This document shows, one piece after another, positions 1 to 13,537 of a stretch of 13,537 nt of DNA. Position numbers and translations under genes: made by a program. The stretch is from the IMG/VR virus record IMGVR_UViG_3300012662_000073, positions 1 to 13,537 of that record. One strand, given 5' to 3'. Every line of letters starts with the position of its first letter. Position 1 is the stretch's first letter. Below the pieces are notes generated by a model. The model saw only the letters and a list, made by a program, of their open reading frames with translations. It was not told where the DNA came from and searched no databases. Source of the stretch: a virus.

Positions 1-47
1 CAATCCTGAGTAATTCCAGCCAGTGTAATACTTGAGCAATCTGCCAT
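1..47 (-). CDS. Hypothetical protein, 5' end only (MADCSSITLAGITQD...), continues past the left edge of the window
   Basis: ATG at 47..45 lies 29 nt downstream of the capsid gene stop, on the same strand as all other genes. Only 15 codons are visible. Confidence 0.3.
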   Translation of the reverse strand, partial: MADCSSITLAGITQD

Positions 48-76
48 ATTCTTTATTTATTTAATCGTTAATTAAT

Positions 77-988
77 CTACGCTATATCCTTTCCACCAAG
101 TACAATCTGATCAGAGAATGCATACTGAACACCAGCATTAGCCTCAATAACAAGTCGAAATTCCCTGTTGTCTTTGGAATAGAAGAAATCAAACACCTCT
201 TCATCATTTACGAGGTCGCAACCGAAGAAAAGATCCTGTGGACGAGCAGCAAAAATATAATCAGTTCCGTTAAGACCGTTAACAGCAACTACTCGTACGT
301 TGGTTCCAGGGAAATAAATCTCTTCATCAACTCCCTTGCCATCATAGTGGAAAAGATTCTTCTCCATAAGCTCGTTAGTGAACTTACGATATACATCAGC
401 ACCTACGAAGATAACTGCACCATCAAGAACCTTCTCCGGAATAGCCATATAAACAGCCTTGATAGCACCATATGCACCAGCAGTTACATCTGCATCCACT
501 TTATTGATATTTGCATCAGCCTTAGCAATCTTGAGAAGACCATCGAAAATCTTGAGATTAGCATCACCAGAAGCAGTATCACCCTGCCAAATAGCGGTCT
601 CGATCTTTGCTTTTACATCAGCGATAACAGCGTTAACGAAATCCTCTTCAAACGGAAGTGTCTTCTGTCCAGCTGCTACGCGAACTGCGTACTGCGTCCA
701 ATATTTAAGCATTGTTTTATCGCAGTAAGCCATATTTACTTTGAAATTACCAGTCTTAATCGTACGCTGCGAAAGAGTCTGTGAGCCCTTTTCGTCCCAA
801 CCACAAGCAAGTCCATCACCGAACTCTACATCAGTTGAAAGAAGATTAATAACTGCATCTGTTTTAATATCTGTCTGGAGATTGAACATCGAAGCACTCT
901 TTGCTCCAAGAACAGCCTCCTTAATAAGGGGAAGTCTACGCTCTTCTACATAAGCCGGAAGAGTTGTCATAACTGGTGAATTTGCCAT
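77..988 (-). CDS. Major capsid protein (HK97-fold type), 303 aa
   Basis: Intact ORF from ATG 988 to TAG 79..77. It sits directly after the protease and scaffold-like genes. By eye, length and sequence character are typical of HK97-like capsid proteins. It has three Trp codons, all TGG, and no TGA. Confidence 0.75.
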   Translation of the reverse strand: MANSPVMTTLPAYVEERRLPLIKEAVLGAKSASMFNLQTDIKTDAVINLLSTDVEFGDGLACGWDEKGSQTLSQRTIKTGNFKVNMAYCDKTMLKYWTQYAVRVAAGQKTLPFEEDFVNAVIADVKAKIETAIWQGDTASGDANLKIFDGLLKIAKADANINKVDADVTAGAYGAIKAVYMAIPEKVLDGAVIFVGADVYRKFTNELMEKNLFHYDGKGVDEEIYFPGTNVRVVAVNGLNGTDYIFAARPQDLFFGCDLVNDEEVFDFFYSKDNREFRLVIEANAGVQYAFSDQIVLGGKDIA

Positions 989-990
989 TT

Positions 991-1455
991 CTAAATATAT
1001 TTTTTACAATTTTTAAAAACTGCTCTCAAATCGTCTTTTGGAGCAATAACATCTTCTATTTCTTCTGTAGCTGGTTTAGCAACAGATTTATCTTCAATTG
1101 CATTTATACGCTCAGTAATTGCCTTTTCAAAAGCATCAATACGAGCATACAATTCATTTACCTCTTTACGAAGATTTTCTATATCCTCGGTTTCTTTTTC
1201 TGGAATAACCTCTTCAAGAGTCTCTTTCTCTTCTGGTTCAACAATCTTACCTTCCTTTACTTGGATTGGAGTTTCGTTAACAATATATTCACCATCTGGA
1301 ATATCTGCATATTCTCCATTCTCAGTAACGAGATATACTTCAGAACCAATTTCAAGACTCTCAAAAGCAATCTTTGTTCCGTCTTCAAGAACAACCTCAG
1401 TAAGGTCAGAAAGCATCTTTGCAAGAGCAATTCTTAAATCATTCAATTTACTCAT
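991..1455 (-). CDS. Scaffolding-like acidic coiled-coil protein, 154 aa
   Basis: Intact ORF ending in TAG 993..991, 2 nt before the capsid ATG. It is rich in E/K/I with a heptad-like central region (EEKETLEEVIPEKETEDIENLRKEVNELYARIDAFEKAI). Its position between protease and capsid is the classical scaffold slot. Confidence 0.5.
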   Translation of the reverse strand: MSKLNDLRIALAKMLSDLTEVVLEDGTKIAFESLEIGSEVYLVTENGEYADIPDGEYIVNETPIQVKEGKIVEPEEKETLEEVIPEKETEDIENLRKEVNELYARIDAFEKAITERINAIEDKSVAKPATEEIEDVIAPKDDLRAVFKNCKKYI

Positions 1456-1967
1456 TATCGAGTTGTTTTAATTTTGTTAAACAAATCATCTCTTTTTATC
1501 TCTGCTTCTATAGAGAAGCCAGAGTAGTTTTCATTTATTATTCTGTTATACAGATCTGGATTTTCAACCAAGTAAGTGATAAACAGAGTACCATCTGGTA
1601 GATCCTCAAATCCATTTAAGATATTGCGAGTAGAATCCTTGATATATACTTCTATTGGTTTAATTCCGGTAAGTAGTTGACCATTGTGCATAATCGAAAC
1701 ATTTTTTGTGTTTCCAGATGTAATTAAGTCACTAGCAAACCGTTTAATTGCTTCTTTACTAAAGACTAAGTAATATTCTCCGGATTCATCTCGTCTATAT
1801 ATCTTCATATCTGGAATAAGAATCGGTCCAGTTATTGATCTCTGATTGTTATCTGATTGAAATCGAATCTGTTTATTAAACAGAATAAAATCGCTTTCGA
1901 TTGCTGGTCTATCTACAAGAGATATACAATCTATGAAAGCATTGTTAACGTAATAAACAGGAATCAT
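1455..1967 (-). CDS. Prohead protease, XkdF-like (Peptidase_S78_2-type), 170 aa
   Basis: I prefer ATG 1967 (MIPVYY...), which lies 1 nt after the upstream TAA. The track's GTG start at 1985 would overlap the upstream gene. The pattern ISLVDRPAIESDF ... ITGPILIPDMKIYRRDESGEY ... SGFSIEAEI resembles the XkdF family as I remember it. The TAA stop overlaps the next ATG (TAATG). Confidence 0.6.
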   Translation of the reverse strand: MIPVYYVNNAFIDCISLVDRPAIESDFILFNKQIRFQSDNNQRSITGPILIPDMKIYRRDESGEYYLVFSKEAIKRFASDLITSGNTKNVSIMHNGQLLTGIKPIEVYIKDSTRNILNGFEDLPDGTLFITYLVENPDLYNRIINENYSGFSIEAEIKRDDLFNKIKTTR

Positions 1968-1968
1968 A

Positions 1969-2649
1969 TTAAAAATTATAAACACACTTTATCTTGTTCT
2001 GGGAATGCAATTTAAGTCTACCAGATAAGACAGAGTTATAAAACCTATACTGATATGGAGTAGGAACGTTCTCAGTAACCCAAGTAGCAAGACGGCCAAT
2101 CCTACCAGCCAGGTATGAGAGGGGTGTAATTACGGTTTTTCTACGAGTTTTATAAAAGCAATTCTTCATAAGCAATTGGATTTTCTTTAAGAACTTACGA
2201 AGGCGGTTTTTTCCAACTCCCACATATTCAGCAAGTTGCGCCCAACTCATTTTAATATCAAGAGTGTCGGAAAATGCAGCACATCTCGTTTTGAGAATAA
2301 TCCCCTTTTCAATGGAAGTGTAATTTGCCTTAAGAAAAGATCTGTTTACGAGATAATACGACTTGTAATTAAGTGAAATCACATAATGCTGTTTTCCCAT
2401 CTTACCGCGCCTGTAAGAGAGATTAATTAAACCAACTTTCGCAATTGCCTTTACTAGGTCGGATACTCTGTCCAAATCTTTTATTTTCAAACACTTAGCA
2501 AGATAAGCTCGGTTTACTTGCTGGTGATCTGTAATCATCTTTACGATATATAAATAAGTAGTTGCTTGTACATCAGTAAGCAATCTAACTCTATAATCGA
2601 TTCTGAAATAATTTTTCATAATCATTGTTATTTTAATAATCATTATCAT
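1969..2649 (-). CDS. Winged-helix DNA-binding protein, paralog A (replication-initiator-like or operon regulator)
   Basis: Intact ORF ending in TAA 1971..1969. Possible ATG starts are 2649, 2643, 2625 and 2619. Comparison with paralog B (MNKNYF...) favours 2619 or 2625 (M(IM)KNYF...). It shares the layout KNYF - wHTH - basic beta hairpin (GKQHYVISLNYKSYYLV vs GRKYVDYIIVKPKYYVV) - second HTH with the 12477..13169 product. There are no TGA codons. Confidence 0.55.
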   Translation of the reverse strand: MIMIIKITMIMKNYFRIDYRVRLLTDVQATTYLYIVKMITDHQQVNRAYLAKCLKIKDLDRVSDLVKAIAKVGLINLSYRRGKMGKQHYVISLNYKSYYLVNRSFLKANYTSIEKGIILKTRCAAFSDTLDIKMSWAQLAEYVGVGKNRLRKFLKKIQLLMKNCFYKTRRKTVITPLSYLAGRIGRLATWVTENVPTPYQYRFYNSVLSGRLKLHSQNKIKCVYNF

Positions 2650-2667
2650 TTTAATAGTTAATAGTCT

Positions 2668-2700
2668 AAGAAAACCTCCCAGACCGAATTATCCGGGAGG
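2668..2700 (-). terminator. Rho-independent terminator-like hairpin upstream of paralog A
   Basis: The minus strand reads CCTCCCGGATAATTCGGTCTGGGAGG followed by TTTTCTT. The stem is 6 perfect bp (2675..2680 / 2695..2700), extendable with G-U pairs. Confidence 0.5.
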
Positions 2701-2769
2701 ACCATTTCAAAATCGACTATCGAGAGAAAAACAAAACTCTCTCTATATATAATGTAAGGGGGTACACAC

Positions 2770-2789
2770 TTTTTGGGCATTTTTGGGCC
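2770..2789. repeat. Tandem 10-bp repeat TTTTTGGGC(N) x2 (minus strand GCCCAAAAA)
   Basis: The copies at 2770..2778 and 2780..2788 are identical. They are followed in the direction of transcription by TATATATA and a hairpin, mirroring the layout upstream of paralog B. Confidence 0.6.
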
Positions 2790-2800
2790 TAATTTTGAAT

Positions 2801-2875
2801 AATTTTTTTAATTTTTTTCGTAAGTGATTGATAATCATCGAGAAAAAATTTAAAATTTTTTTTAAAATTTTTTTT
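2801..2875. promoter_or_regulatory. AT-only phased T-tract block with a central inverted repeat (candidate DNA-unwinding or bent element)
   Basis: AATTTTTTT occurs x2 (2801..2818) and AAAATTTTTTTT x2 (2852..2875). These flank TTTTTTTCG-taagTGATTgatAATCAt-CGAGAAAAAA. Confidence 0.45.
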
Positions 2876-2986
2876 CGGAGACTCAACAATTCCTTTACCT
2901 GGCTTGTAGGATCATCCAAAATAAGACAATCAAAAGATTCTTTTTCGGAGCCAGCGGGAGAGTTTCTTTATAGTACATTGTAAATA

Positions 2987-3004
2987 TATGAAATATATTT
3001 CATA
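2987..3004. repeat. 18-bp perfect palindrome TATGAAATATATTTCATA
   Basis: Read directly from the sequence. It lies 27 nt downstream of the terminase stop. The stem is AT-only, so it is weak as a terminator. Confidence 0.6.
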
Positions 3005-3030
3005 CACTAGGGTGTCTCATTATCAATAAG

Positions 3031-4230
3031 TTAACCTATTCTGTATGTTCCGAGGTTTTTTTTGATTGCATAACAAGTAATTGCGAGTGACATACAAGCA
3101 TCATCTGGACAATTCTTTCCTGCGTATGTTATAAGATTTCCTTTATAAACGGCTTGAAATGCTTGTAGTTCTCTAATCAACTCTTTGTTGTTAATTATTT
3201 TTATTCGTTTTTGTTCAAAAAGTATTTGTAATCACTCTACAATATCTCTTTTACTCGAATTGGTTGTAGTTCATTCTGTTATCGGAATTGTAGTGTATTT
3301 CTTTAAGAGATCGATGTATGCCTTTCCCATCGAATTGCCTTCGCAAACTACTTTATTCGGTTTGTATTTATTAACGATCTCAGCAATTCATTTAACTCGT
3401 TCAACGGGCTCTAGCTGGTTGTTATATTGGAAATCAATCATTTCGTAATCTCTATTCATAACTGTTACAGCAGTATAATCTCCACCAACAGACGAACTAC
3501 AATCCACTCCTATTACTAGCCCGTTTTTGTGGGTAGGTTCTCCAACTGCATCTAGTATATTATTAAAAAGCAATCCTTGTCCTGCTGGAGCGAATTGTCC
3601 TAGTATTTCAGTCATATAACGCATTGGAGAATATTGTTCTTTTAAACGATCTAATTCTTCAGGCGAATAAACGAGATTCACATATTTCGATCAATCATAA
3701 ACAATTGTGTTTTTATTGTTATAAAGATCTCAAATATATCCCTCTGCCGTTAACGGGCTGGAAATATAAATAGTCAACGCTTTCTTCACCCTACGTAAAG
3801 GGAGTGCAGTCATAATAAAATCCGGGTCGAGAAAACAACATTCATCTAGCACAAGAAAGTTTTCCGCAGTTAATCCTCGTAAGGAGTCTTTTTGTTGTCC
3901 CGATCTAAAAAAGATTCTGGAACCATTTATGAAACATAATTCAAGTGTTTGGTAATTCACTTGCTTTATAAGGTTTGCTCCATTTAACATTTTAACAACA
4001 TCCTGCATTTGTGATCGAGATTGTTGTAACGTAGGTGCAATATAAACCCCATCTCCAATTAATTCAAGAGATGATTTAATCATCAAAAGAGCGATTGTAG
4101 AGCTTTTAAAAAATTGTCTCGGCGCAATTATGAGTATATCTTTATTTTGGTTTCGGAAACCCATCCGAGTAACATCAGACAGCAACTCTTTTTGCCAAAC
4201 TGTCAGATTGTTTGGAAGTACTATTTTCAT
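3031..4230 (-). CDS. terL: Terminase large subunit, 399 aa, with five in-frame TGA codons
   Basis: The gene runs from ATG 4230 to TAA 3033..3031. It has a Walker A-like motif IIAPRQFFKSST, Walker B LVLDE, coupling motif ISSP and nuclease-domain acidic motifs (VIGVDCSS..GGDYTAVTV; CPDDACMSLAI). Track fragments 3730..4230 and 3388..3681, plus the untracked 3031..3387, are in one frame. They are joined by TGA at 3730, 3691, 3388, 3271 and 3232. Confidence 0.8.
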
Positions 4231-4232
4231 AT

Positions 4233-4667
4233 TTATTCAATCTTTATTTCGCTCTGTTTTAAATTATATAAACGCTCCCAAGTAATTCGAGAGTTAATTA
4301 AGTGATCTTTATTTCATTGTCCTACTCCAATACAGCCTTGTGTTTCCGAAACTCAGTTCAGTGGGTGACATAACACACCTTCCCAGCAAGGCACATCAAG
4401 TAAACGAGGCATCTTTCCATCACAAAAATCTTTGTAGTATTTAATCTTACTGTATTTGGGAGATTTTATTTCATACGATATTTTATATGTCCCAGTAGGA
4501 ATTGCTGTCTTAGAAGGGATTTTAACCCGCTTTATAAGGCTTGTAGGATCATCTTTTTTAAGGCCTCTATCAGTTGGTTCAAGAGTATCACAAAAGTATT
4601 TGTTGTCGATATATAATTCTCCCTGCGTATACTCTGGTTGTTTGTTTGTTCTTTTTAAAATTAGCAT
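4233..4667 (-). CDS. DUF5675-like protein (possible cell-wall-active enzyme), 144 aa, with two in-frame TGA codons
   Basis: The gene runs from ATG 4667 to TAA 4235..4233. The pattern TQGELYIDNKYFCDTLEP ... AIPTGTYKI ... MPRLLDVPCWEGVLCHPLN-TGA-VSETQGCIGVGQ matches my memory of DUF5675 (T.G.L..C.TLE .. IP.G.Y .. VP...iH.GN...T.GCI.vG). The TGA codons are at 4353 and 4314. Confidence 0.5.
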
Positions 4668-4670
4668 ATT

Positions 4671-4713
4671 AAAAAGTCTGCCAGGTTGTCATACTACTGT
4701 CAGAATGGCAGAC
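4671..4713 (-). terminator. Terminator-like hairpin 3 nt upstream of the DUF5675 start codon
   Basis: The minus strand reads GTCTGCCA-(22 nt)-TGGCAGAC TTTTT AAT ATG. The stem is 8 perfect bp (4676..4683 / 4706..4713). Confidence 0.45.
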
Positions 4714-5163
4714 ATTATTTCTGGCATAGTATTTGTATATATAATATTCGGATCGAGATACACCTCGATAGGATAGTGGGAAAGGGAAAGCCCTCCGATG
4801 TAGTAGAAACTAAAGTATAGCCTGCATTGAGCCTCAGTTGTGTTAATTGATTTTAAGATGAATTAATCTTAAATAGCACCTGCCAAAAAGACCATCACAT
4901 ATAACAAGGGAACTTGCAAAGTGTATTTCAGAGTGAAGCAAGTAGTGGTACTCAGCCACTCCTAAGTGAAGATAAACTCAGCGATCTTACTCGGTAGTCA
5001 TTCCAGAAGACAACGTTGAAGGGAACAAAATTCTTTGTAACGGGTTTATAACCGATTGATTTAATCGTTACTTGGTTTTGTTTTAAAAGACTTTCTCACT
5101 GCCCACCCCCTATATTAAGAGTGATTGGTAATCGAAACTTGCTTTAATAACAAAAGCGAGTAA
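4714..5163. ncRNA. Candidate structured noncoding RNA or long cis-regulatory leader (class not recognised)
   Basis: TAA/TAG stops are dense in all six frames even when TGA is read as sense. Local G/C-rich patches are unusual for this genome (GGGAAAGGGAAAGCCCTCC 4778..4796; GCCCACCCCC 5101..5110). There are several local helices: 4752..4757/4764..4769, 4852..4859/4866..4873, 4912..4917/4938..4943, 4944..4948/4956..4960 and 5053..5057/5063..5067. I could not fold a tRNA. Confidence 0.25.
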
Positions 5164-5196
5164 GGGGAAACTATTCCCTATATGAAACGTTTCCCC
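5146..5196 (-). terminator. Terminator-like hairpin after the tape-measure-like gene
   Basis: The minus strand reads GGGGAAAC-(17 nt)-GTTTCCCC with 8 perfect bp (5164..5171 / 5189..5196), starting 10 nt after the TAG. The following tract TTACTCGCTTTTGTTATT is only moderately T-rich. Confidence 0.4.
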
Positions 5197-5206
5197 ATAG
5201 ACTACT

Positions 5207-8095
5207 CTAGAAAGTTGCATTATCGTTAACTACTTTTACTCGGTTTTGAGCATCAGTAATATCTCTTTCAGTAACATAAACTTTAATTGGTTTGTTAACT
5301 TCATCTATCTCTTTATCTCCGAGTAAGTTACGAGTATATTCTATATTCGGTTGAGTAACAGCAGGCGGAGTAACAGTAGATGCAGATACACTACTTGATG
5401 AACTGAATTGCGTTCTTTGAATTTGTACAACATTTGCAATACCAGCCGCAATTGCAGCAGCAGCCGCAGCAGCACCTAAAAACGGTCCAACATACGGTAT
5501 TGATGCCATTGATTGATAAGAACTATTCGCAGCAGCATAAGTATCCATAATTGCTTGTGTAGTTGCAGCTACCTTATAAGTAGTAAATGCTTTTTTACGT
5601 TGTTCTTCACTCAGTTTTTCGTTTTGTGATTCAGTTTGTGCTATACTAGCCAGACTACTCATTACATTGCTTGCTACACTAAGAGTTGATTGTAATGCTA
5701 GTCGTTTCTTTGCTTGTACAGCATCATATGCTTTTGCGTTATCTTGTTCGTTTTTAATTGCTGCATCACTAAGAGCTATTTCATTCTCTTTAAGAGTACG
5801 CTCTATCTCCAGACGTTGATCAGCAGTTAATTGACTATTCGATAATTGTTCCGTTAAAAGTTTGTTTTCGGCATCTATACGCTGCTTTGTAAGAGCATAA
5901 AGATCATTGTTATACTTGATTGTGTCTGCATATTGTTTTTGGACATCCTCTTTTGATTGATATGTAAATACTTCATTACGATCGAATCCTGCTCCAAATG
6001 CTCTACTAAACTTTTGTCCGTATCTAGTGTTATATGCTTGCTCTTGTGGTTGTCTCAGATTGCTTGTATCACTCAGTTGTCTTATTCGAGCTAGTTCTTC
6101 CTTAAATTGATCATATCTGCTCTTTTGATTCTCTTTTTCATCTTGCTTGTTCTTATCCAGATATTTATTCAATATCTCGTTCTTCTTAACAAGATATATT
6201 TCATCGATTCGAGTACTATCTACACCATATCGTTCAGCCAGAGAAAGCATCTCTTGATACTGTTCATCTAATGCGTTAATTGCATTCTCTTTCTCAGTAT
6301 AAAAGAGTTTTTCAGATTCTTTTAAAAAGCTATTCAGTGCTTCGAGATCTTTATCAATCTCAGTTTTCGTAGTACTACCAGATCCCTCTTTGTCTTTACT
6401 AGCCCAGAAAGGTTTGTATTTCTTTCGGAGTTCCTCTGTTTTGTTCGTTATGTTACTAACAAACTCTGTATATGATTCCTCGTTCTCTTTAAGTGCTTTA
6501 TCTACTTGTGCTTTATTCGCTACTCGTATTGTCTCTACGCTTGTTCCAGTAGCGTATTGTGCTGCATTTTGTAATGCTTTTTGGAGATCTTCTGCACCCT
6601 GTCTTTCGATTTCTAATTGATTGTTGATATACTCAGTAGTCTTCTCAGAAATCTTCTGTCTATATGCATCTATTTGTGCTCTTGCTATAATTGCATTTTT
6701 ATAATCCTCTGTATTATTAACAAAAGCATCTTCAGCATCTTTAACGTCATTTATCTTTAATCCAGTTTTCTCGATTTGTTCGGAGTACTCTTTTAAAAAC
6801 TCCTTTTTATCACCAAACTGATTGTAAACGTTCAAGAGTTCATTAAACGCAGCAAGACTATCTCCAGCTAATTCAGATGTAGTTTTATTAATTGCTTTGT
6901 TAAATTCCTGTTGTGCTTTACTTGCTTTGTAAGTAGCAGCAATTCATTCAAACAATTTAAAAACTGCTGCTGTTATCACTGTTATTAAGGCTGTCCAACC
7001 CACTGTTGAAATTACACTCTTTGTAGCAGACCAAGCTTTACCAAGTTTTGATTGTGCAAACTCAGCCTTTTGTAAGGCAGATTCATATTGCTGTAATTCC
7101 TTTACTTGGCCCGCTTCTTGGTATTGTAAGTCTTTTAAGACTTCTTTTAGCCCTGTGGTTCCGTTCGCGTACTTTTGTTGTACTTGTATTGCTTTATTGT
7201 AGTCCAATCCCATTCCTTGGAGAGCCGCTTTTGCATTTATTCTCGCATCAACAAGAGATTGTCCGTACTGCTCTTGTAATTCCTTTACTTGGTCGTAGTA
7301 TATCGACAATGTCCTATCTGATTCTGAGACTTCTTGGATCTGTTGTTTTACAACTTCAATCGACTTCTGTGTATTAGCAATTAAGTTCTTTTGTCGGCTA
7401 ATTACCTTTGTTTGGTTTGTAATATATTTATCCCACTGTTCATTAACCGGTACAATCGTTTTTTGTTGCTGTTGTAATGCTTGTGTAGTCTGTGCAATTT
7501 CTTTTGATCCACCAGAAACACTTGTAGATATGTTCACATCTCCTATTCCAGCAAGATCTTTAATCGGTTGTATATCCAAGCTATTTAAGGCTTGCGCAGA
7601 TTCTGTTATTCGTCTATTAAACGGACTCAGATTCTCAAACAAGTCGAGTACGCCATCTTTTAAACGATCGAATCATCCTTTTATTGTTGGTAAACTATTT
7701 GCAAGTCCTTCCAATCCACCAATTCCTTGTACAACTGCAATTCCTCCTTGGAGTTTTACAAGCACCTTACTAAGATCATCACCACTCTTACCAAGTAAGG
7801 CAAGTAGTCCATTTAATGCACCGAATCCACCTGCCAATCCAGATCCGATTCGAGAAAGATTCGCTAATTGATCAGCCAGCTTTTGGGTATTCTGCTGGCT
7901 AATCTTATTAACGTTATTTAATTGTGCTTCGTATTGATTTAATCTCTCTATTGTTTTTGTATATTCAGCACTAGTCTTATCTAGGCTTGCTAAATAATCT
8001 TTTAAAGAGTTAATCTCTTTTTTAAGCTGTCTAACGTTTGTAACCGCTTTACCGGTTTGTACGTCAACTATTTTGGTAATTACTGTTTCTGCCAT
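5207..8095 (-). CDS. Tape-measure-like or internal ejection-like protein, 962 aa, with two in-frame TGA codons
   Basis: The gene runs from ATG 8095 to TAG 5209..5207. Track fragments 7673..8095, 6944..7642 and 5207..6835 share one frame and are joined by TGA at 7673 and 6944. The TTG 'starts' of the two downstream fragments are internal Leu codons. The protein has long Q/E/K-rich coiled-coil stretches plus Gly/Ala-rich hydrophobic segments (GSGLAGGFGALNGLLALLG; VGPFLGAAAAAAAIAAGIANVV), as in tape-measure proteins. Confidence 0.6.
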
Positions 8096-11000
8096 TATAA
8101 ACTAATTGTTATATCATCTGTTCCAGCAGTTATCTGGAAACGTCTAATTACTGTTCCTCGTCTATTTATCAACTGTATTTCAAATGCTTCATTTCTCGGT
8201 CCGTATATCAATCAAGATTTATTAAAATCATCAAACGAGTAAGTGTATCTATCATCCTCACTAACTACACTCATTCACATTGTATCAAGAGTAAGTAAGT
8301 TTTCAATCACTTTTATATTTCTTGCTTTACTTGGGTTCGGGAGCGTCTCCATTCTAAACGATTGTGTGTATTTATATAACCTGCTAGTAAACGTCCAATA
8401 TGCTACTTCACTATGTCAAGTATCATTTATGCTTGTTTGTGCAGTAATCTCTGTAGTACCAGCATCTCCACTAGTTATATCTGGTTCAAGATATTGTGAA
8501 TCACTTTCTACCGTTCAACTATCAGCAGCAAGGAGAGTCCCTTCATATTGTCCACTATCATATCTGGTTGTTAACGGACTCAGAGTAAATCCATATGTAT
8601 AATCTGGTTGTCCATTTGTATATGCATTTATATCATTTACTCGTATAAACTCAAATTGTTGTGGTTCTTTACTTTCCGGAGAGTAATCGTTTGCCTTATT
8701 TAAGATATAAACTGTATTATCAATCAAATAAAACGAGTTCAAATCAATTTCATCAAGTAATGCTCAACAAGTAAGCTTTCTTGTGTTCTCGTTAAAGAGA
8801 TCATTATAATATTCTTTATTAAACCTGTTATAAATGCATTTATCGTCTGTGTATTCAACTCCTGGTATAAATCATTCTTTTGGTCATCCTAAATCAAGAC
8901 TATCTGTTACTTGGTTGTCATTAATCAAATAACTAGAGTAACTCGGTATTTTATCAAGCTTGTATGCAATTCGTTCACCAGCCTTGTTATATTCGCTTGT
9001 AGTGTACAAAAAGCATCTTTCTTCATTCAGATCAAACATTTCTTGTGTATCATCAGATAACCAGTATATCTGTGGAGTATCGAAATATCCGTTATAAAAG
9101 ACTAAGCTTGCTTTAAAATCACTAGTGGACTTACTTTTATCAAAGAAACAAGGCTTGTAATTGCTATCCTGTCCAGCGAGTATTCCTCAATCACTAATCT
9201 TATTTATATATTCCGAACCATATAAAGTCTGTGTTGTGGAGTCATCTTTTGTCTTAAAAAGAGTTCATTCACAATTATCAACCAAGAAACAAGGTTGTTC
9301 AGTAGATCCCTTAAAATAACTTCGATAATATTTACTGGAGTCTCTTGCCGTTATTGCTTGTTGGAAAACATTATCACTCAGTAATTCATTTATATCACTG
9401 TTAAATTCATATCCAGTGTCAATTCGTTGTTGTCCGTATTCTATATTATATCTATTCTTATATTTGCTTGCGTAATATGTTTCCGGAGTCTCCAGTTTCA
9501 TTAAATATCATTTCTTATCAAATAACAAGGGTTCAATCGTAATCTCTTTCGAGTAGTCTATTTTGCCTGTTATATCAATAATATTTCTTTTAAAGAAACT
9601 ATTTCTCGATTTTATGTTAATCTCATTATTAACTCGATCTATCTCAAAATATAATCCAAAGAGTTTCGCATAACTAATCAAATAATCAGCAGCAGAGTCT
9701 TCTGTAGTAAGCAATTTCTTTTTGGTAATCAATGTGTTTGTTCCAACCGTATAATCAGACTTGATTGTTATCGAGCTTGTTTGTGCAGTAAAGTTCATTT
9801 CACCAGCATATCCAGAACCAATCTCAATTTCATCTTTTGTAGGATAAAGTTTTGTAACCCTTTCACTATAAAAAACGGAGTACCAACTTGCTTTCACAAC
9901 AATTTTAACACTGTCAGCAGGTTTCACCAAATCAGTAATTGTAAGATGTATCGTTTTATCAAATTTAAAAGTATCTCCAGACTTTATAAAAGCACCATCC
10001 ATTAAAGTACTGTTTGCATCTGTTTCAGGAGTATATCCCATTCAGTTATTCGGTTGTGGTGTCTTGCTGTCACTCAGTCTGTTTGTAATATTATAAATAT
10101 TCGAGTAGCCAACAATTTTATTATTATCATCAAGTAACTGTACTTGTAATGCAATTGAACCACCAGCAGTACTAACTATATTACCTCTTTCAAAAGTAGC
10201 AGCCATATAAAGAGTATTATCCGAGATTTCATCATCTGGTTGGAAATTAATGTCAATCGGTATATCAATATCAATTGTACTATCATTCGAGTAACCAGAT
10301 AAATCAATTGTCTCAGAACCATCCTTTTTAAAAGGAAATGTGTTATCCGGTAGAGAACTATTTATATTTCCGAGATCACTTGTTATTTCGCTTGTAGATT
10401 CATTTCCAGATTCACTTTCTTGATCAGCACCAAGTAACGGTAGAGTAATATAAGATTGTTCCCAATAAGGATTTTTTGGACTAAATCAGCTTGGATCGAG
10501 ATTCACTTGATATCCTGTATTGTCTTTATTTAAAATCGCCTTAAAAAGCTCTTTAAGCCTCAATGCAGGTCTTTGTTTGTAAGATCGTAAATCTCGTATT
10601 TCCCATTCCGTATAAGATTCATTCAGTTTGGCTAATCCATATCCGTTATATAATTTATATTCTCCATTCACACTAGGGAAACTAGTTCCAGATTGATTCA
10701 CTAAACAAGAACTTGTATCAAACTCTTCATATAATCCGTTATATGCAGGTATAAACTTTAATAAACTATGTAAACCATCTTCAGATCCATTAAAAGAGTC
10801 ATAAACCCATTCTTTATTTATGCTAAACCTAAAATAAGTATCATCATCACTTGTATAAGTAATATCAGCAAGTGTTCTTGTGGAGCCATCTTCTTTATAT
10901 CTAAGATTGTAAAAGAAATCACCAAGCAAACCATATAAGTTAATATTATATGCTCGCTTGGTAATGCTAGTCAGTTGCATATATCCTCTTTCAAATAAAC

Positions 11001-11250
11001 AACCGTTTCTAAGTATAACGAAATCAACTCTCTTTCTTGGATTGAAAGTCTGTTCTGTTTGTTGTCTATCTAATCTGTATATATCATCAAAAATCTTGTT
11101 GTTGTTATCTGTTCTCGGTATTTCTATGCTAACCGAGTAAGGATTCTTTATTGCTGTTGGATTGTATATCTCCAATTGGCTATAAGTCATTCCGAGAGAT
11201 ATATCATCATTCAGATCAACTTTCTTGTTATTTATATATAATTCTACCAT
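8095..11250 (-). CDS. Large tail/baseplate protein (host-recognition candidate), 1051 aa, with twelve in-frame TGA codons
   Basis: The gene runs from ATG 11250 to TAA 8097..8095, which overlaps the next ATG as TAATG. Hand translation shows a single open frame through TGA at 10486, 10042, 9508, 9265, 9187, 8884, 8872, 8764, 8515, 8416, 8275 and 8212. This joins track fragments 10486..11250, 9508..10041, 9265..9501 and 8515..8742 with the untracked stretches between them. The composition is beta-rich (N/Y/T/S/D), typical of fibre and baseplate proteins. Confidence 0.6.
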
Positions 11251-12068
11251 CGAAATTGTGTTCTAGCGGATTTCAAAGTAAGTTCAAGCCTACTAAATCT
11301 CTTTTTAAAATCATAACTAGTTGTATCAATTAAAACTGGCTCAATAATGTTTTTATCTAGACTGTGTAAGTAAACTTTTGGACTATTTAACAAGTGATGT
11401 ATATTCTCCTTGTTAATTGTATAACCAGTAACAACGTCATAACTGTTTGTAAACTCAGTTAAGTACCTCCTTGTAAGAGTATCATCCAAGTAATCATAAT
11501 TCGTTTTGTTCTCAGATTTATTTGCTTTCACAAGTAAACTATCTCAACCACCAAACTCGTTCAAGTAATATATTGCGTAATCACCACAACTCATTTTGTA
11601 TTTAAACTCTTGAAACGTACTAGTAAACGAAATATTTCCAGTAGTCTTTTGTGAATAAACGTTTGCTTCATTACTAGCAGGTAACGCAGTACCATTTATT
11701 TTCGGATTCACATCTTTCAAGTAAGAGAAAATCAAATATTGTCTTGCATCATATAAATCATCAATCGGAGCAGAAATATATGTTGCATCACTATCTGTAT
11801 ATTCTTGATTGTTTGTTATATAATCATCTATTCCAGTTGATGTTTCAAAATATCTTTTCCAGTTAACTAAGCCTTGTGTTTGTTTCGGGAGATCTCCAGA
11901 GTCTATATATTTCTTTATAAGATCGTTTATTTTAACGCTTATCTTACCGGTGTTTGGATTTCTCCAAGCTTTTCCAGTAAAAACTGTTTCATCATCTATT
12001 TTAATTCAGTAGTCTGTGTATTCTTTATTAACTACTTGTTCATCTATTATTGGATAACCTATATTCAT
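11244..12068 (-). CDS. Tail-associated structural protein, 274 aa, with two in-frame TGA codons
   Basis: The gene runs from ATG 12068 to TAG 11246..11244, overlapping the next ATG by 7 nt (ATGGTAG). The TGA codons are at 12006 (..TDY-TGA-IKIDD..) and 11544 (..YYLNEFGG-TGA-DSLLV..). It joins track fragments 11544..11735 and 11244..11531. Confidence 0.55.
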
Positions 12069-12484
12069 ATCGAGTCTATCAATTTATTTGTTTGTATATC
12101 TATTTCTTTATCAAGGTTCGGTTCTATTATATCTAACGACCTTTCTAAGATGTGTTTGCCAGGTATGCCTTTCTTAGCAATGCTCTTTGCAATTGCTCAA
12201 CTAAGATTTCTTTCTAAGGGCAAGTGTTTGTTTTTTATCCAATTCTCTATAAGAGCAATCGGAGGTTGTTTTCCAGGTAATCGACCATTCTCTATATATT
12301 CGTAATAATCAGCAATTGATAATCAAACCGATCAATTATCCGATTGCTCTTGTGTAGTAACACTAAGACTGTTTGAAAGATTTCCAGTTGTGTTAATATT
12401 CTCTTTATTTAACAATTCTCTGTAAGAGTTTATAAATTCTTCTCCAGAGTGTTCTAAAACTGTATCTAAATCAAGTCTATTCAT
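12059..12484 (-). CDS. Hypothetical virion or assembly protein, 141 aa, with four in-frame TGA codons
   Basis: The gene runs from ATG 12484, overlapping the upstream wHTH stop by 8 nt (ATGAATAG), to TAG 12061..12059. The TGA codons are at 12332, 12323, 12197 and 12065. It is invisible in the standard-code track because the first TGA comes after 50 codons. The product reads MNRLDLDTVLEHSGEEFINSYRELL...ADYYEYIENGRLPGKQPPIALIENWIKNKHLPL... Confidence 0.5.
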
Positions 12485-13169
12485 CCTTTTGTTTTTTTAA
12501 TAATCCGGAAATCATTTTGTCATATATCTCGTTTGCTTTCGGGATAATATAAAGTTGATTTTCATAAAACCAACTTGCTTGTTTATAAAGCTTGCTAGTA
12601 GGATCACCCGTAGTAAGGATCATATTCAATTCATTCATTCTATTATCCGAAAGATGCGTTGTAGCGAAAATTGGGAAATACTCTCCAGATAAAGCATAGC
12701 CGTCATCAACCACTGTTATAATGCCCGATTCAATTAAACGCTTCTTGTAAGAGAAATAGGCAGTTCTTCCTATTTGGAGATGCTTTATAATATCGTTATC
12801 CGAGTACTTTATTTGGTTTGTTCCATTAATTCTTAATTCGGCTAGTTTAATTGCCAATACTCCCAATTCTTTGTATTGTAGGATAGCGTTCATACAAACT
12901 ACATAATACTTCGGTTTGACAATTATATAGTCCACATATTTTCTTCCGTTTACAAAGCGGTACTCCTTTCTTATATAGCCATCTTTTTGAAATTGATTTG
13001 TCATTCTAGTAACGACATCTGCTTTCTTTATTCCGGTAAGTTCCATTATCTTTCCTCGGCTTATGTGGCTGACTTTTGAGTCGCTATTCATCATAATTAG
13101 CGCAAGCACATAATCCTCTTTTAAGAGGTAACATCTCTTGGTTGGCATTACAAAATAATTTTTATTCAT
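12477..13169 (-). CDS. Winged-helix DNA-binding protein, paralog B (replication-initiator-like or operon regulator), 230 aa
   Basis: Intact ORF from ATG 13169 to TAG 12479..12477. The N-terminal pattern KNYFVMPTKRCYLLKEDYVLALIMM..ISRGKIMELTGIKKADVVTRMTNQFQKDGYI resembles RepA_N / DnaD-type wHTH initiators from memory. It has a second HTH-like segment (DIIKHLQIGRTAYFSYKKRLIESGII), no TGA and one TGG. Confidence 0.6.
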   Translation of the reverse strand: MNKNYFVMPTKRCYLLKEDYVLALIMMNSDSKVSHISRGKIMELTGIKKADVVTRMTNQFQKDGYIRKEYRFVNGRKYVDYIIVKPKYYVVCMNAILQYKELGVLAIKLAELRINGTNQIKYSDNDIIKHLQIGRTAYFSYKKRLIESGIITVVDDGYALSGEYFPIFATTHLSDNRMNELNMILTTGDPTSKLYKQASWFYENQLYIIPKANEIYDKMISGLLKKQKDE

Positions 13170-13183
13170 AAAATTTCATTGAT

Positions 13184-13198
13184 GGAAACTCGGTTTCC
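13184..13198. promoter_or_regulatory. Inverted repeat GGAAAC-TCG-GTTTCC, 15 nt upstream of the paralog B start (operator or RNA hairpin candidate)
   Basis: Perfect 6-bp arms read directly from the sequence. The same half-site recurs at 13363..13386 and 5164..5196. Confidence 0.4.
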
Positions 13199-13201
13199 TA
13201 T

Positions 13202-13230
13202 TATAGATAGTTTATATATAGATAGTTTAT
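13202..13230. repeat. Tandem direct repeat TATAGATAGTTTAT x2 (period 15 bp)
   Basis: The copies at 13202..13215 and 13217..13230 are identical. A TATAAT hexamer on the minus strand (13202..13207) lies at the downstream edge. Confidence 0.6.
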
Positions 13231-13234
13231 TGAT

Positions 13235-13276
13235 ACCCCTTTTTCGGTACCACCCTAACCCCTTTTTCGGTACCAC
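13235..13276. repeat. 19-bp direct repeat ACCCCTTTTTCGGTACCAC x2 (period 23 bp), iteron- or operator-like
   Basis: The copies at 13235..13253 and 13258..13276 are identical. They lie between a terminator and the wHTH paralog B gene. Confidence 0.65.
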
Positions 13277-13289
13277 TTGTGTAGGTTAT

Positions 13290-13320
13290 TAAAAAACAGC
13301 GAGTTAGCTAGACCCGCTGT
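13290..13320 (-). terminator. Rho-independent terminator
   Basis: The minus strand reads ACAGCGGGTCTAGCTAACTCGCTGT followed by TTTTT. The stem is 6 perfect bp (13296..13301 / 13315..13320), extendable to about 10 bp with one G-U pair. Confidence 0.6.
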
Positions 13321-13322
13321 TC

Positions 13323-13340
13323 CAATGAAATTCAATGAAA
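13323..13340. repeat. Tandem CAATGAAA x2 (period 10 bp)
   Basis: The copies are at 13323..13330 and 13333..13340. An inverted copy (ATTTCATTG) sits at 13173..13181 next to the paralog B start. Confidence 0.4.
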
Positions 13341-13362
13341 ACTATCTAATCTTTTATTTAAC

Positions 13363-13386
13363 GGAAAGTCTCGAAAGAGAGTTTCC
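13363..13386. promoter_or_regulatory. Inverted repeat GGAAAGTCTC-GAAA-GAGAGTTTCC (9 of 10 bp)
   Basis: Read directly from the sequence. The loop is GAAA on the plus strand and UUUC on the minus strand. It shares the GGAAA/TTTCC arms with 13184..13198 and GAGAGTTTC with 2958..2966. Confidence 0.4.
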
Positions 13387-13455
13387 TATTATTATATCTA
13401 TTCTATATACAATAACTATGCCAAACTAGTTTTTCGGAATATTGGCAGTTATTTT

Positions 13456-13537
13456 TTAGAAGGAAATTTCAAACTGTCCATCATTTACATTAACCTCCTG
13501 TTTATCAACAAGTAAGCCATTTAGTTTACTTTGTTCG
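13456..13537 (-). CDS. 3' end of an upstream gene (...EQSKLNGLLVDKQEVNVNDGQFEISF), entering from beyond the right edge
   Basis: The frame is open from the window edge to TAA 13458..13456. It is followed by a hairpin (TGCCAA 13419..13424 / TTGGCA 13442..13447) and then the 13290..13320 terminator. Confidence 0.35.
   Translation of the reverse strand, partial: EQSKLNGLLVDKQEVNVNDGQFEISF

Follow-up and report, generated by a model that had tools for sequence, protein, structure and literature searches.

A probable gene for a structured non-coding RNA of about 455 nt in small gut phages that read TGA as tryptophan

Introduction

Large RNAs with many conserved helices are rare, and they have repeatedly proved to be ribozymes, cores of ribonucleoproteins (RNPs) or, lately, self-assembling RNA cages. 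A smaller phage-encoded structured RNA is the pRNA of phi29, which has about 170 nt and a nuclease-less ATPase as its partner. ROOL (RF03087) and GOLLD (RF01998) are hundreds of nucleotides long, possess covarying helices and invariant junctions, and are encoded by stand-alone, non-coding genes in phage genomes, their function being not known (PMC5737381, PMC12286853). Recoded gut phages also have suppressor tRNAs and theta ribozymes as non-coding RNA genes (PMC10879173). Here, we describe an element at 4743..5198 on the + strand of the virus record IMGVR_UViG_3300012662_000073 (positions 1 to 13,537; this whole stretch of 13,537 nt is hereafter referred to as the window). The element is likely to be an independently transcribed gene for a highly structured non-coding RNA of ~455 nt, which belongs to a previously undescribed family.

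The RNA lies in the gap at 4668..5206, between the genes for a tape-measure-like protein and a DUF5675 protein. It has the features by which large phage RNAs of the ROOL/GOLLD type are recognized: a length above ~400 nt, covarying helices, conserved junctions and a stand-alone, non-coding gene in a phage genome. It differs from ROOL and GOLLD in that neither of their covariance models matched it even at E ≤ 10, in that it is shorter, and in that it occurs in small TGA-recoded gut phages, probably infecting Bacteroidota, and not beside tRNAs. Like the phi29 pRNA, it is a structured RNA encoded by a phage and, in the window, stands beside a packaging gene. However, the window phage has a classical large terminase (TerL) with an RNaseH-like nuclease domain, no pRNA of Rfam matched, and the adjacency of the RNA to TerL is not conserved. 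Compared with suppressor tRNAs and theta ribozymes, it has a far greater size, and it shows neither a cloverleaf nor an Rfam match of the hepatitis delta virus (HDV)-like class. With intrinsic terminators and attenuator leaders, the locus has in common two terminator-like bracketing hairpins; unlike an attenuator leader, the 450-nt body is opposite in strand to its supposed targets and is not linked with them in the relatives.

Conservation and strand of the fold

When contigs of related phages (denoted by L numbers) had been reached via TerL homologs, window 4741..5200 was found by nhmmer to be homologous to non-coding gaps in these loci. Copies of the ~450-nt element are kept in no fewer than five further lineages of related gut phages with TGA = Trp (Table 1), and the carriers of the family are a clade of small (~23–27 kb) uncultured gut phages with this code. 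A more diverged copy, that in L004, matches the L018 copy across its whole length.

A consensus structure obtained with RNAalifold from six sequences contains 51 base pairs, 32 of which show compensatory changes on both sides. In the alignment, 94.1% of the cells were paired as compared with 70.6% in column shuffles, and none of 500 shuffles matched the observed value on any covariation measure. As a control, the 3′ partners were slid by 1–3 columns, whereby pairing fell to 34–47%. A helix table by lineage gave the same picture: helices P1 to P10 are fully paired, while their sequences differ at homologous positions. Thus, the "at least five local helices" of the initial annotation were an understatement, since ten are backed by covariation.

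The two strands were clearly distinguished by the same pairs. Read on the + strand, they comprise 212 Watson–Crick pairs, 25 G·U pairs and 18 mismatches, while on the − strand they comprise 212 Watson–Crick pairs, 2 G·U pairs and 41 mismatches. The folding energy agrees in direction: the z-score was −3.2 for the + strand (none of 100 shuffles was as good) and −0.76 for the − strand. The G·U and mismatch counts argue that the folded molecule is the + strand transcript; relative to it, the tape-measure, DUF5675 and terminase genes on either side are antisense. No conserved open reading frame (ORF) covers the element under code 11, 4 or 15, the substitutions being pairwise compensatory, and the ORFs that overlap it in the relatives had no BLASTP match in any other locus. 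As far as can be judged from sequence comparison, the view that selection maintains a complex fold of the + strand RNA is supported.

A signal acting at the level of DNA might also conserve such a region: a pac or cos site, a replication origin, or a single-strand initiation signal with DNA hairpins. The initial annotation had suggested a pac site here, since no small terminase gene is adjacent; TerL stands next door in the window, and single-stranded DNA could in principle show strand-specific folding. Nevertheless, strand-specific G·U pairs together with compensatory changes point to RNA and not to a duplex DNA site, so that the pac proposal finds no support in the conserved element. A folded RNA would typically show what is seen here, with ten helices (two being long-range) and invariant nucleotides in the junctions; a promoter box lies upstream and terminator hairpins lie downstream (in L004, a hairpin with a U-run); the position relative to TerL is not conserved; and another gap of the window, 2650–3030, with its A/T tracts, is at least an equally good candidate for an origin or pac site. 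We therefore give a DNA element very little credence.

Architecture of the RNA

The positions of the helices are listed in Table 1. The promoter box and the terminal hairpin served to place both ends of the RNA, to within roughly 5–10 nt. The 5′ domain consists of the three hairpins P1, P2 and P3 and is followed by P4; P5 and P6, both long-range, close the core, and within it are P7 to P10 plus several invariant single-stranded stretches. The proposal of an independent structured RNA of ~450 nt in the initial annotation was right as to kind and size, but the strand is +, the start is at ~4743, and the end is at the 5164..5196 hairpin and not at the 4671..4713 hairpin.

Table 1. Positions of the RNA, its parts and copies, and neighbouring features (window coordinates unless a locus is named)
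Feature	Position	Strand	Remarks
Probable RNA gene	4743..5198 (~455 nt)	+	nhmmer 4741..5200, covariation, strand test, fold z −3.2; flanked by the tape-measure-like gene and DUF5675, RNA antisense
Promoter box	4721..4743	+	CTGGCATAGTATTTGTATATATA, including Bacteroidota-like −7 element TAGTATTTG
P1	4752..4769	+	ATCGAG/CTCGAT, loop AUACAC; fully compensated in 6 lineages
P2	4778..4793	+	GGG/CCC closing conserved loop AAAGGGAAAG; GGG/CCC, GG/CC, GAG/CTC across lineages
P3	4796..4829	+	hairpin CGATGTAG/CTGCATTG, conserved loop ..GUAUAGC
P4	4835..4882	+	hairpin of variable length
P5	4891..4898 with 5121-5129	+	ACCATCAC with GTGATTGGT; long-range, closes core
Junction and P6 5′ strand	4899..4910	+	invariant AUAUAACAA, then GGG (4908-4910)
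P6	4908-4910 with 5108-5110	+	GGG with CCC; long-range
P7	4912..4943	+	ACTTGC/GCAAGT, conserved 20-nt loop AAAGUGUAUUUCAGAGUGAA
P8	4944..4960	+	AGTGG-TACTCAG-CCACT; GGUACUCAGCC invariant
P9	4977..5021	+	bipartite: CAGCG 4979-4983 with CGTTG 5014-5018, plus inner stem
P10	5037..5071	+	GTAACG 5037-5042 with CGTTAC 5066-5071
P6 3′ strand, junction, P5 3′ strand	5108..5129	+	CCCUAUAU: P6 3′ strand plus conserved junction, then P5 3′ strand
Terminal hairpin	5164..5196	+	GGGGAAAC/GTTTCCCC; z −2.7 (+), −2.9 (−)
Flanking hairpin	4673..4716	−	8-bp stem GTCTGCCA/TGGCAGAC plus U5, directly before ATG 4667
RNA copy, L006	4567..5054	+	nhmmer; flanked by 151-aa and prohead protease genes, RNA co-oriented
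RNA copy, L001	6070..5605	−	nhmmer; L002 and L003 same lineage; flanked by 115-aa and Peptidase_M15_3 genes, RNA antisense
RNA copy, L016	8518..8983		nhmmer; near-identical to L001; from metagenome pattern scan; flanks and antisense orientation as L001
RNA copy, L018	1131..698	−	nhmmer; from metagenome pattern scan; flanked by gene of same 115-aa family and 140-aa gene (family of L001's 156-aa protein), RNA co-oriented
RNA copy, L010	14430..14886	+	nhmmer; with L011 and L012; upstream of 107-aa/115-aa gene pair, RNA co-oriented
RNA copy, L004	2745..2231		5′-domain covariance model, 66 bits; more diverged; also in L005; downstream of GIY-YIG and 127-aa genes, RNA co-oriented
127–130-aa family	L024 18154-18543	−
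127–130-aa family	L004 2754-3137	−
127–130-aa family	L001 1282-1674	+
127–130-aa family	L010 948-1331	−
Further box site	L024 18143-18161	−
Further box sites	L013 125-137, 355-367
Further box sites	L022 6008-6020, 7145-7157
Further box site	L010 1864-1876
Tape-measure-like protein	stop at 5207	−	962 aa; code 4
Tail protein		−	1051 aa; code 4
Large terminase TerL	3031..4230	−	399 aa; code 4; Pfam Terminase_6C + 6N
DUF5675	4233..4667	−	Pfam DUF5675, E 1e-21

The helices tolerate extensive replacement of their sequences. P1 takes the forms TAGGAG/CTCCTA, TAGATG/CATCTA, ACAGAG/CTCTGT, AGTGAG/CTCACT and AAGGGAA/TTCCCTT in other lineages. The forms of P4 are GTGTTA/TAGCAC, ACTGAC/GTCAGT, TGGCTTA/TAAGCCA, TAAGCG/CGCTTA and CAAGC/GCTTG. 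In P3, 8 of 8 pairs are formed in each lineage, with 5 covarying positions and one invariant G·U pair. Both sides are changed in 6 of the 9 pairs of P5, all 6 pairs of P7 are replaced between lineages, and in P8 the three outer pairs covary around a loop that is invariant across 5 lineages. P10 is fully paired, and different, in 7 sequences; its forms include GTAACG/CGTTAC, TTTATAAAGA/TCTTTATAAA, GAGAAG/CTTCTC, CAGAG/CTCTG, ATTACTG/CGGTAAT and TTTGCCA/TGGCAAA. Inside it lie a hairpin that is variable and can be swapped, and the single strand GAUUGAUUUAAU (5054-5065), which is invariant. A strain that is 99.7% identical to the window (L027) has GTAACA/TGTTAC in P10, which is a compensatory change from G-C to A-U in the closing pair. 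In the same strain (~5770–6250, − strand), an unrelated hairpin occupies the inside of P10 (window 5040–5066), while the rest of the RNA is identical. The L004/L005 copy retains the promoter box, the 5′ domain, P4, P5, P6 and P10.

Besides the helices, the junctions AUAUAACAAGG and CCCUAKAU are invariant, and TATAACAAGG is invariant across the 5 core lineages. Tertiary partners of GAUUGAUUUAAU were looked for by eye in the J8/9 junction and the 3′ tail, and the candidates were inconsistent across lineages. The repeated motif AAGGGAAC of the initial annotation is present at 4906 and 5019, but two copies of an 8-mer are at the chance level; only the first copy is within the conserved element, where its GGG forms P6. 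Likewise, the G/C-rich patches noted there are real but modest: the G + C content is 38% in the RNA, 47% in its 5′ domain and 34% in the window. The GC skew is positive across the gap only, a further sign in favour of the + strand. The likeness of UAACAAGG and GAUACACCUC to the 3′ end of 16S rRNA was judged coincidental, the second being within a covarying stem and no small-subunit (SSU) rRNA match being found in Rfam.

Searches with known families gave no alternative assignment. An Rfam search and covariation in the relatives had been named in the initial annotation among the means of checking the region: the latter yielded the compensatory pairs described above, and the former yielded nothing on the conserved body. 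Rfam 15 had no match at the gathering score in the window and L024, and at E ≤ 10 only scattered chance matches were seen in the window and in L001, L004, L006, L018 and L021. Besides ROOL, GOLLD and pRNA, the models searched included OLE, raiA, 6S, tmRNA, RNase P, group I/II introns, HDV-like and other small ribozymes, and riboswitches. The sole Rfam match touching a copy was L20_leader, at 25.5 bits (gathering score, 58.7), on the 3′ end of the L004 RNA. With ARAGORN at default settings, neither tRNA nor tmRNA was found in the window, L024 and eleven relatives; relaxed settings gave inconsistent, lineage-specific calls and no shared cloverleaf.

Promoter box and 3′ end

The core of the promoter box, TGGCATAGTATTTGTATAT, is at 4722-4740, with GGCATAGTATTTG at 4723-4735. 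A near-identical box at 13424-13402 (−) heads the long − strand operon. In L004 and L018, the RNA follows the same box, and in L006 it follows a near-variant, TTTGGCATATAGATTG. L024 contains the box at 2 sites (0.03 matches expected), one being at the RNA and the other downstream of a sigma-like gene (see below). A Bacteroidota-type promoter consists of the −7 element TAnnTTTG and a TTTG near −33. The exact TAnnTTTG is present in L001, L010 and L018, and TTTG is found 19–20 nt upstream of it in L001 and L010.

More generally, the box, written as TGGCATAGT(A/T)TTTGTATAT, recurs at operon heads and before the RNA, and further sites are given in Table 1. In L013, L022 and L024, terminator-like hairpins follow ~50–100 nt past the box, and these units of box and hairpin may be small RNAs or attenuators.

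Every RNA copy ends in a hairpin, and in L004 a strong hairpin is followed by a U-run. In the window, the RNA is likely to end at the 5164..5196 hairpin. This hairpin probably terminates transcription in both directions, serving the RNA as well as the tape-measure mRNA, because the tape-measure stop precedes it on the − strand; the RNA gene is placed convergently and divergently between the tape-measure and DUF5675/TerL genes. The claim that two terminator-like hairpins bracket the gap was confirmed: both are real, with folding z-scores from −2.7 to −4.0.

Only one protein family, of 127–130 aa, was present in all 4 well-covered RNA-bearing lineages and in none of 5 RNA-less loci, a distribution confounded by partial genome coverage. 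No match to Pfam, PHROG or PDB sequences passed the curated cut-off or E ≤ 0.001. The predicted structure has two helical domains and a disordered linker (mean pLDDT, 72.5), and its top Foldseek matches were extracytoplasmic function (ECF) sigma factors at a non-significant level (best E, 0.17–0.3). In L004, the 127-aa gene is directly upstream of the RNA, and in L024 a promoter box lies at the 3′ end of the gene. The family could represent a sigma-like factor of the phages with a link to either the RNA or the promoter box.

Flanking genes and orientation

As Table 1 shows, the neighbouring genes vary among the loci, and the RNA is found in both orientations. This has a direct bearing on the other proposal of the initial annotation, namely that the gap is a long 5′ untranslated region on the − strand, ending at the 4671..4713 hairpin with U5 and controlling read-through into DUF5675 and the terminase gene as a leader or attenuator. 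The hairpin with U5 directly abuts ATG 4667; a second hairpin with a T-run, at 2666-2703, stands just before the next gene start; and no − strand promoter box was found between the tape-measure gene and DUF5675, so that DUF5675 and TerL may depend on read-through. However, it is the + strand that carries the conserved fold, whereas DUF5675 and TerL are on the − strand, and the 4671..4713 hairpin is beyond the conserved region. The copies in the relatives are neither beside DUF5675 nor directly upstream of TerL. The differing flanking genes therefore do not fit a dedicated leader for DUF5675 and TerL, and no + strand ORF is present downstream of the RNA that it could serve as a cis-leader. A leader or attenuator is thus not supported, and its probability appears to be very small.

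The antisense position in the window could alternatively have a meaning of its own: + strand transcription might collide or pair with − strand read-through, thereby timing the lysis-like and packaging genes. In the window, L001 and L016, the RNA is indeed antisense, with its 5′ end pointing to where a lysis-type gene, either DUF5675 or Peptidase_M15_3, begins. In L006, L010, L018 and L004, by contrast, it is co-oriented with its neighbours, and ten conserved helices with invariant loops are not needed for interference, which we consider improbable, though somewhat less so than a leader or a DNA site.

The gap itself was searched for coding sequences by six-frame translation of 4600..5280, in which each type of stop codon was marked separately. 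In agreement with the initial annotation, no long frame exists in 4668..5206 under code 11, 4 or 15. A reservation applies to the frame of DUF5675: when TGA is read as sense, this frame is open upstream to 4862 and contains an ATG at 4727. In the public gene calls, DUF5675 of this phage has 164 aa and spans the 4671..4713 hairpin and part of the promoter box: 20 codons, MPEIMSAILTVVW(TGA)QPGRLFN, are added over 4668–4727 (−), up to the ATG within the promoter box. The Pfam DUF5675 model begins at ATG 4667 (residue 4 corresponds to model position 2). The 4673..4716 hairpin falls outside the conserved RNA. On the − strand it has −14.6 kcal/mol (z, −3.2) and is followed by UUUUU and then AAU-AUG; on the + strand it has −18.0 kcal/mol (z, −4.0). 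It may be a partial terminator, a 5′ structure of the DUF5675 mRNA, or coding sequence if DUF5675 starts at 4727.

A similar overlap was noticed in L006, where the public call of the prohead protease (4922–5599, 225 aa) covers the 3′ part of the RNA. Because its homologs are only ~170 aa long, the true start is probably near 5087, just past the terminal hairpin of the RNA, as this length comparison suggests. In no fewer than two loci (L006 and this phage), public gene calls thus run into parts of the RNA or of its promoter, and the annotation can be corrected.

Distribution of the family

Judging from the catalogues, the family is rare and seems to be confined to phages. The gap had no blastn match in 50,697 GenBank phages, and four DNA patterns of the element gave only chance matches in IMG/VR, as checked with nhmmer. 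Two DNA patterns gave no real copy in the GTDB genomes (one per species, 185,579 bacterial and archaeal species). The pattern matches in L008, L014, L015, L017, L019 and L020 were rejected as chance matches. As for the phage itself, GenBank phages contained only distant relatives of its TerL (≤25% identity), IMG/VR scans with TerL and DUF5675 as single proteins had no match, and the TerL profile matched no prophage in the GTDB genomes; no close relative was thus found among the three collections. The TerL profile did detect relatives at 30–37% identity in IMG/VR (L043–L059), and no RNA copy was found in the parts of these genomes examined.

A further unit was observed in L021, a relative without any TGA codons, at a position comparable to that of the RNA. 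A ~430-nt non-coding unit (1560–2010, +) directly follows the Peptidase_M15_3 gene, with a perfect Bacteroidota-type promoter (TTTG..TATCTTTG) at one end and a strong terminator at the other, and it has the short motifs ACAUAUAAAGCC and GURUAGCC in common with the family. Because no homology was detectable, it was not counted as a member; the unit could be either distantly related to the family or another RNA altogether.

Several points weigh against an independently transcribed gene for a new RNA family. The transcript and both its ends are inferred. The promoter evidence is uneven: the window, L004 and L006 have TAGTATTTG/TATAGATTG in place of the exact TAnnTTTG, no TTTG stands at the usual −33 spacing in the window, and the upstream TTTG of L018 is wrongly spaced. 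Most of the 3′ hairpins have no U-tract. Only about six independent lineages are available, and the structure was scored on the same sequences from which it was derived. No copy was found in the partly covered genomes of several code-4 relatives (L009, L013, L022 and L043–L058). Finally, the mode of action is reasoned from size, complexity and analogy. On balance, we still regard a + strand gene for a structured RNA as the likely explanation.

Genetic code and possible roles of the RNA

The genome of the phage is ~26.7–26.8 kb in size, as judged from three near-identical public contigs. Every clear gene of the window is on the − strand, and the genes are coherent only under code 4, in which TGA encodes Trp; no case of TGA as a stop was found among the genes examined. 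TerL carries five in-frame TGA codons, which are mostly aligned with Trp in relatives whose TerL has none. In-frame TGA is common in TerL (5 TGA, 1 TGG), DUF5675, the tape-measure-like gene and the tail genes. In contrast to window 3031–12484, the capsid-region gene block (window 77–2649) has no in-frame TGA and uses only TGG for Trp; the comparison also covered L024 8370–14488. BACON domains occur in the tail proteins of the relatives, which is compatible with a Bacteroidota host, the host itself being putative.

The co-occurrence with code 4 raises the question of whether the RNA is a trans-acting factor, or part of one, for reading UGA as Trp: a non-canonical decoder or suppressor, a decoy of release factor 2 (RF2), or a ribosome-binding RNA. 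All RNA-bearing lineages checked for codon use (the window phage, L001, L004, L006 and L010) read TGA as Trp. ARAGORN detected no tRNA in any of the related loci or in the ~23 kb covered of the 26.8-kb genome; the remaining ~3.7 kb could hold one. Detectable suppressor tRNAs are found in only 35% of code-4 phages (bioRxiv 10.1101/2021.08.26.457843). Against a role in recoding, the relaxed ARAGORN calls did not agree on a cloverleaf among the lineages, GU (the complement of the invariant P8 ACUCA loop) is not enriched directly after in-frame TGA, and the code-4 relatives L009, L013, L022 and L043–L053 have no copy in the parts examined. The support for this role consists of code-4 co-occurrence and the lack of a tRNA in the sequence examined, and we hold it to be the least probable of the explanations considered. 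If it were true, stop codons would be reassigned here by a new route, one based on RNA.

The anticodon-like loops UUUCAGA (L7) and UACUCAG (L8) were also rejected as decoders: L7 has no flanking stem, no consistent cloverleaf is formed, and no bias toward a UGAGU context is seen. L010 has UUUUUAG at the L7 site, yet it recodes TGA and not TAA.

For the structured RNA, an action in trans through its tertiary fold would be expected, because of its size, ten helices, long-range closure and invariant single strands. By analogy with ROOL and GOLLD, it might serve as a scaffold that binds proteins or self-assembles, or as a ribozyme. In a rough weighting, a scaffold, RNP or self-assembly role is the foremost candidate, though a tentative one. 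A ribozyme is rather doubtful, and a decoy against host defence or a host factor is about equally doubtful; other roles take up the remainder, and simple base-pairing or cis-leader action is unlikely. The compact, defined architecture makes the RNA suited to structural and biochemical work, and its presence in TGA = Trp gut phages bears on code switching without a visible suppressor tRNA.

A second intergenic gap

The window contains a second intergenic gap of ~380 nt (2650–3030), extending from the TerL stop (3031) to the next ATG (2649). It has no homolog among the relatives. Long A/T tracts occur at 2843–2875, and the strong − strand hairpin with a T-run at 2666-2703 (~−18 kcal/mol) is some 17 nt before the ATG. 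From these sequence features, the gap is a candidate origin, pac or terminator region. The 2666-2703 and 4673..4716 hairpins have the same layout, in which a terminator-like hairpin stands shortly before a start codon; the hairpins before the ATGs at 4667 and 2649 may be partial terminators or 5′ structures of the mRNAs.

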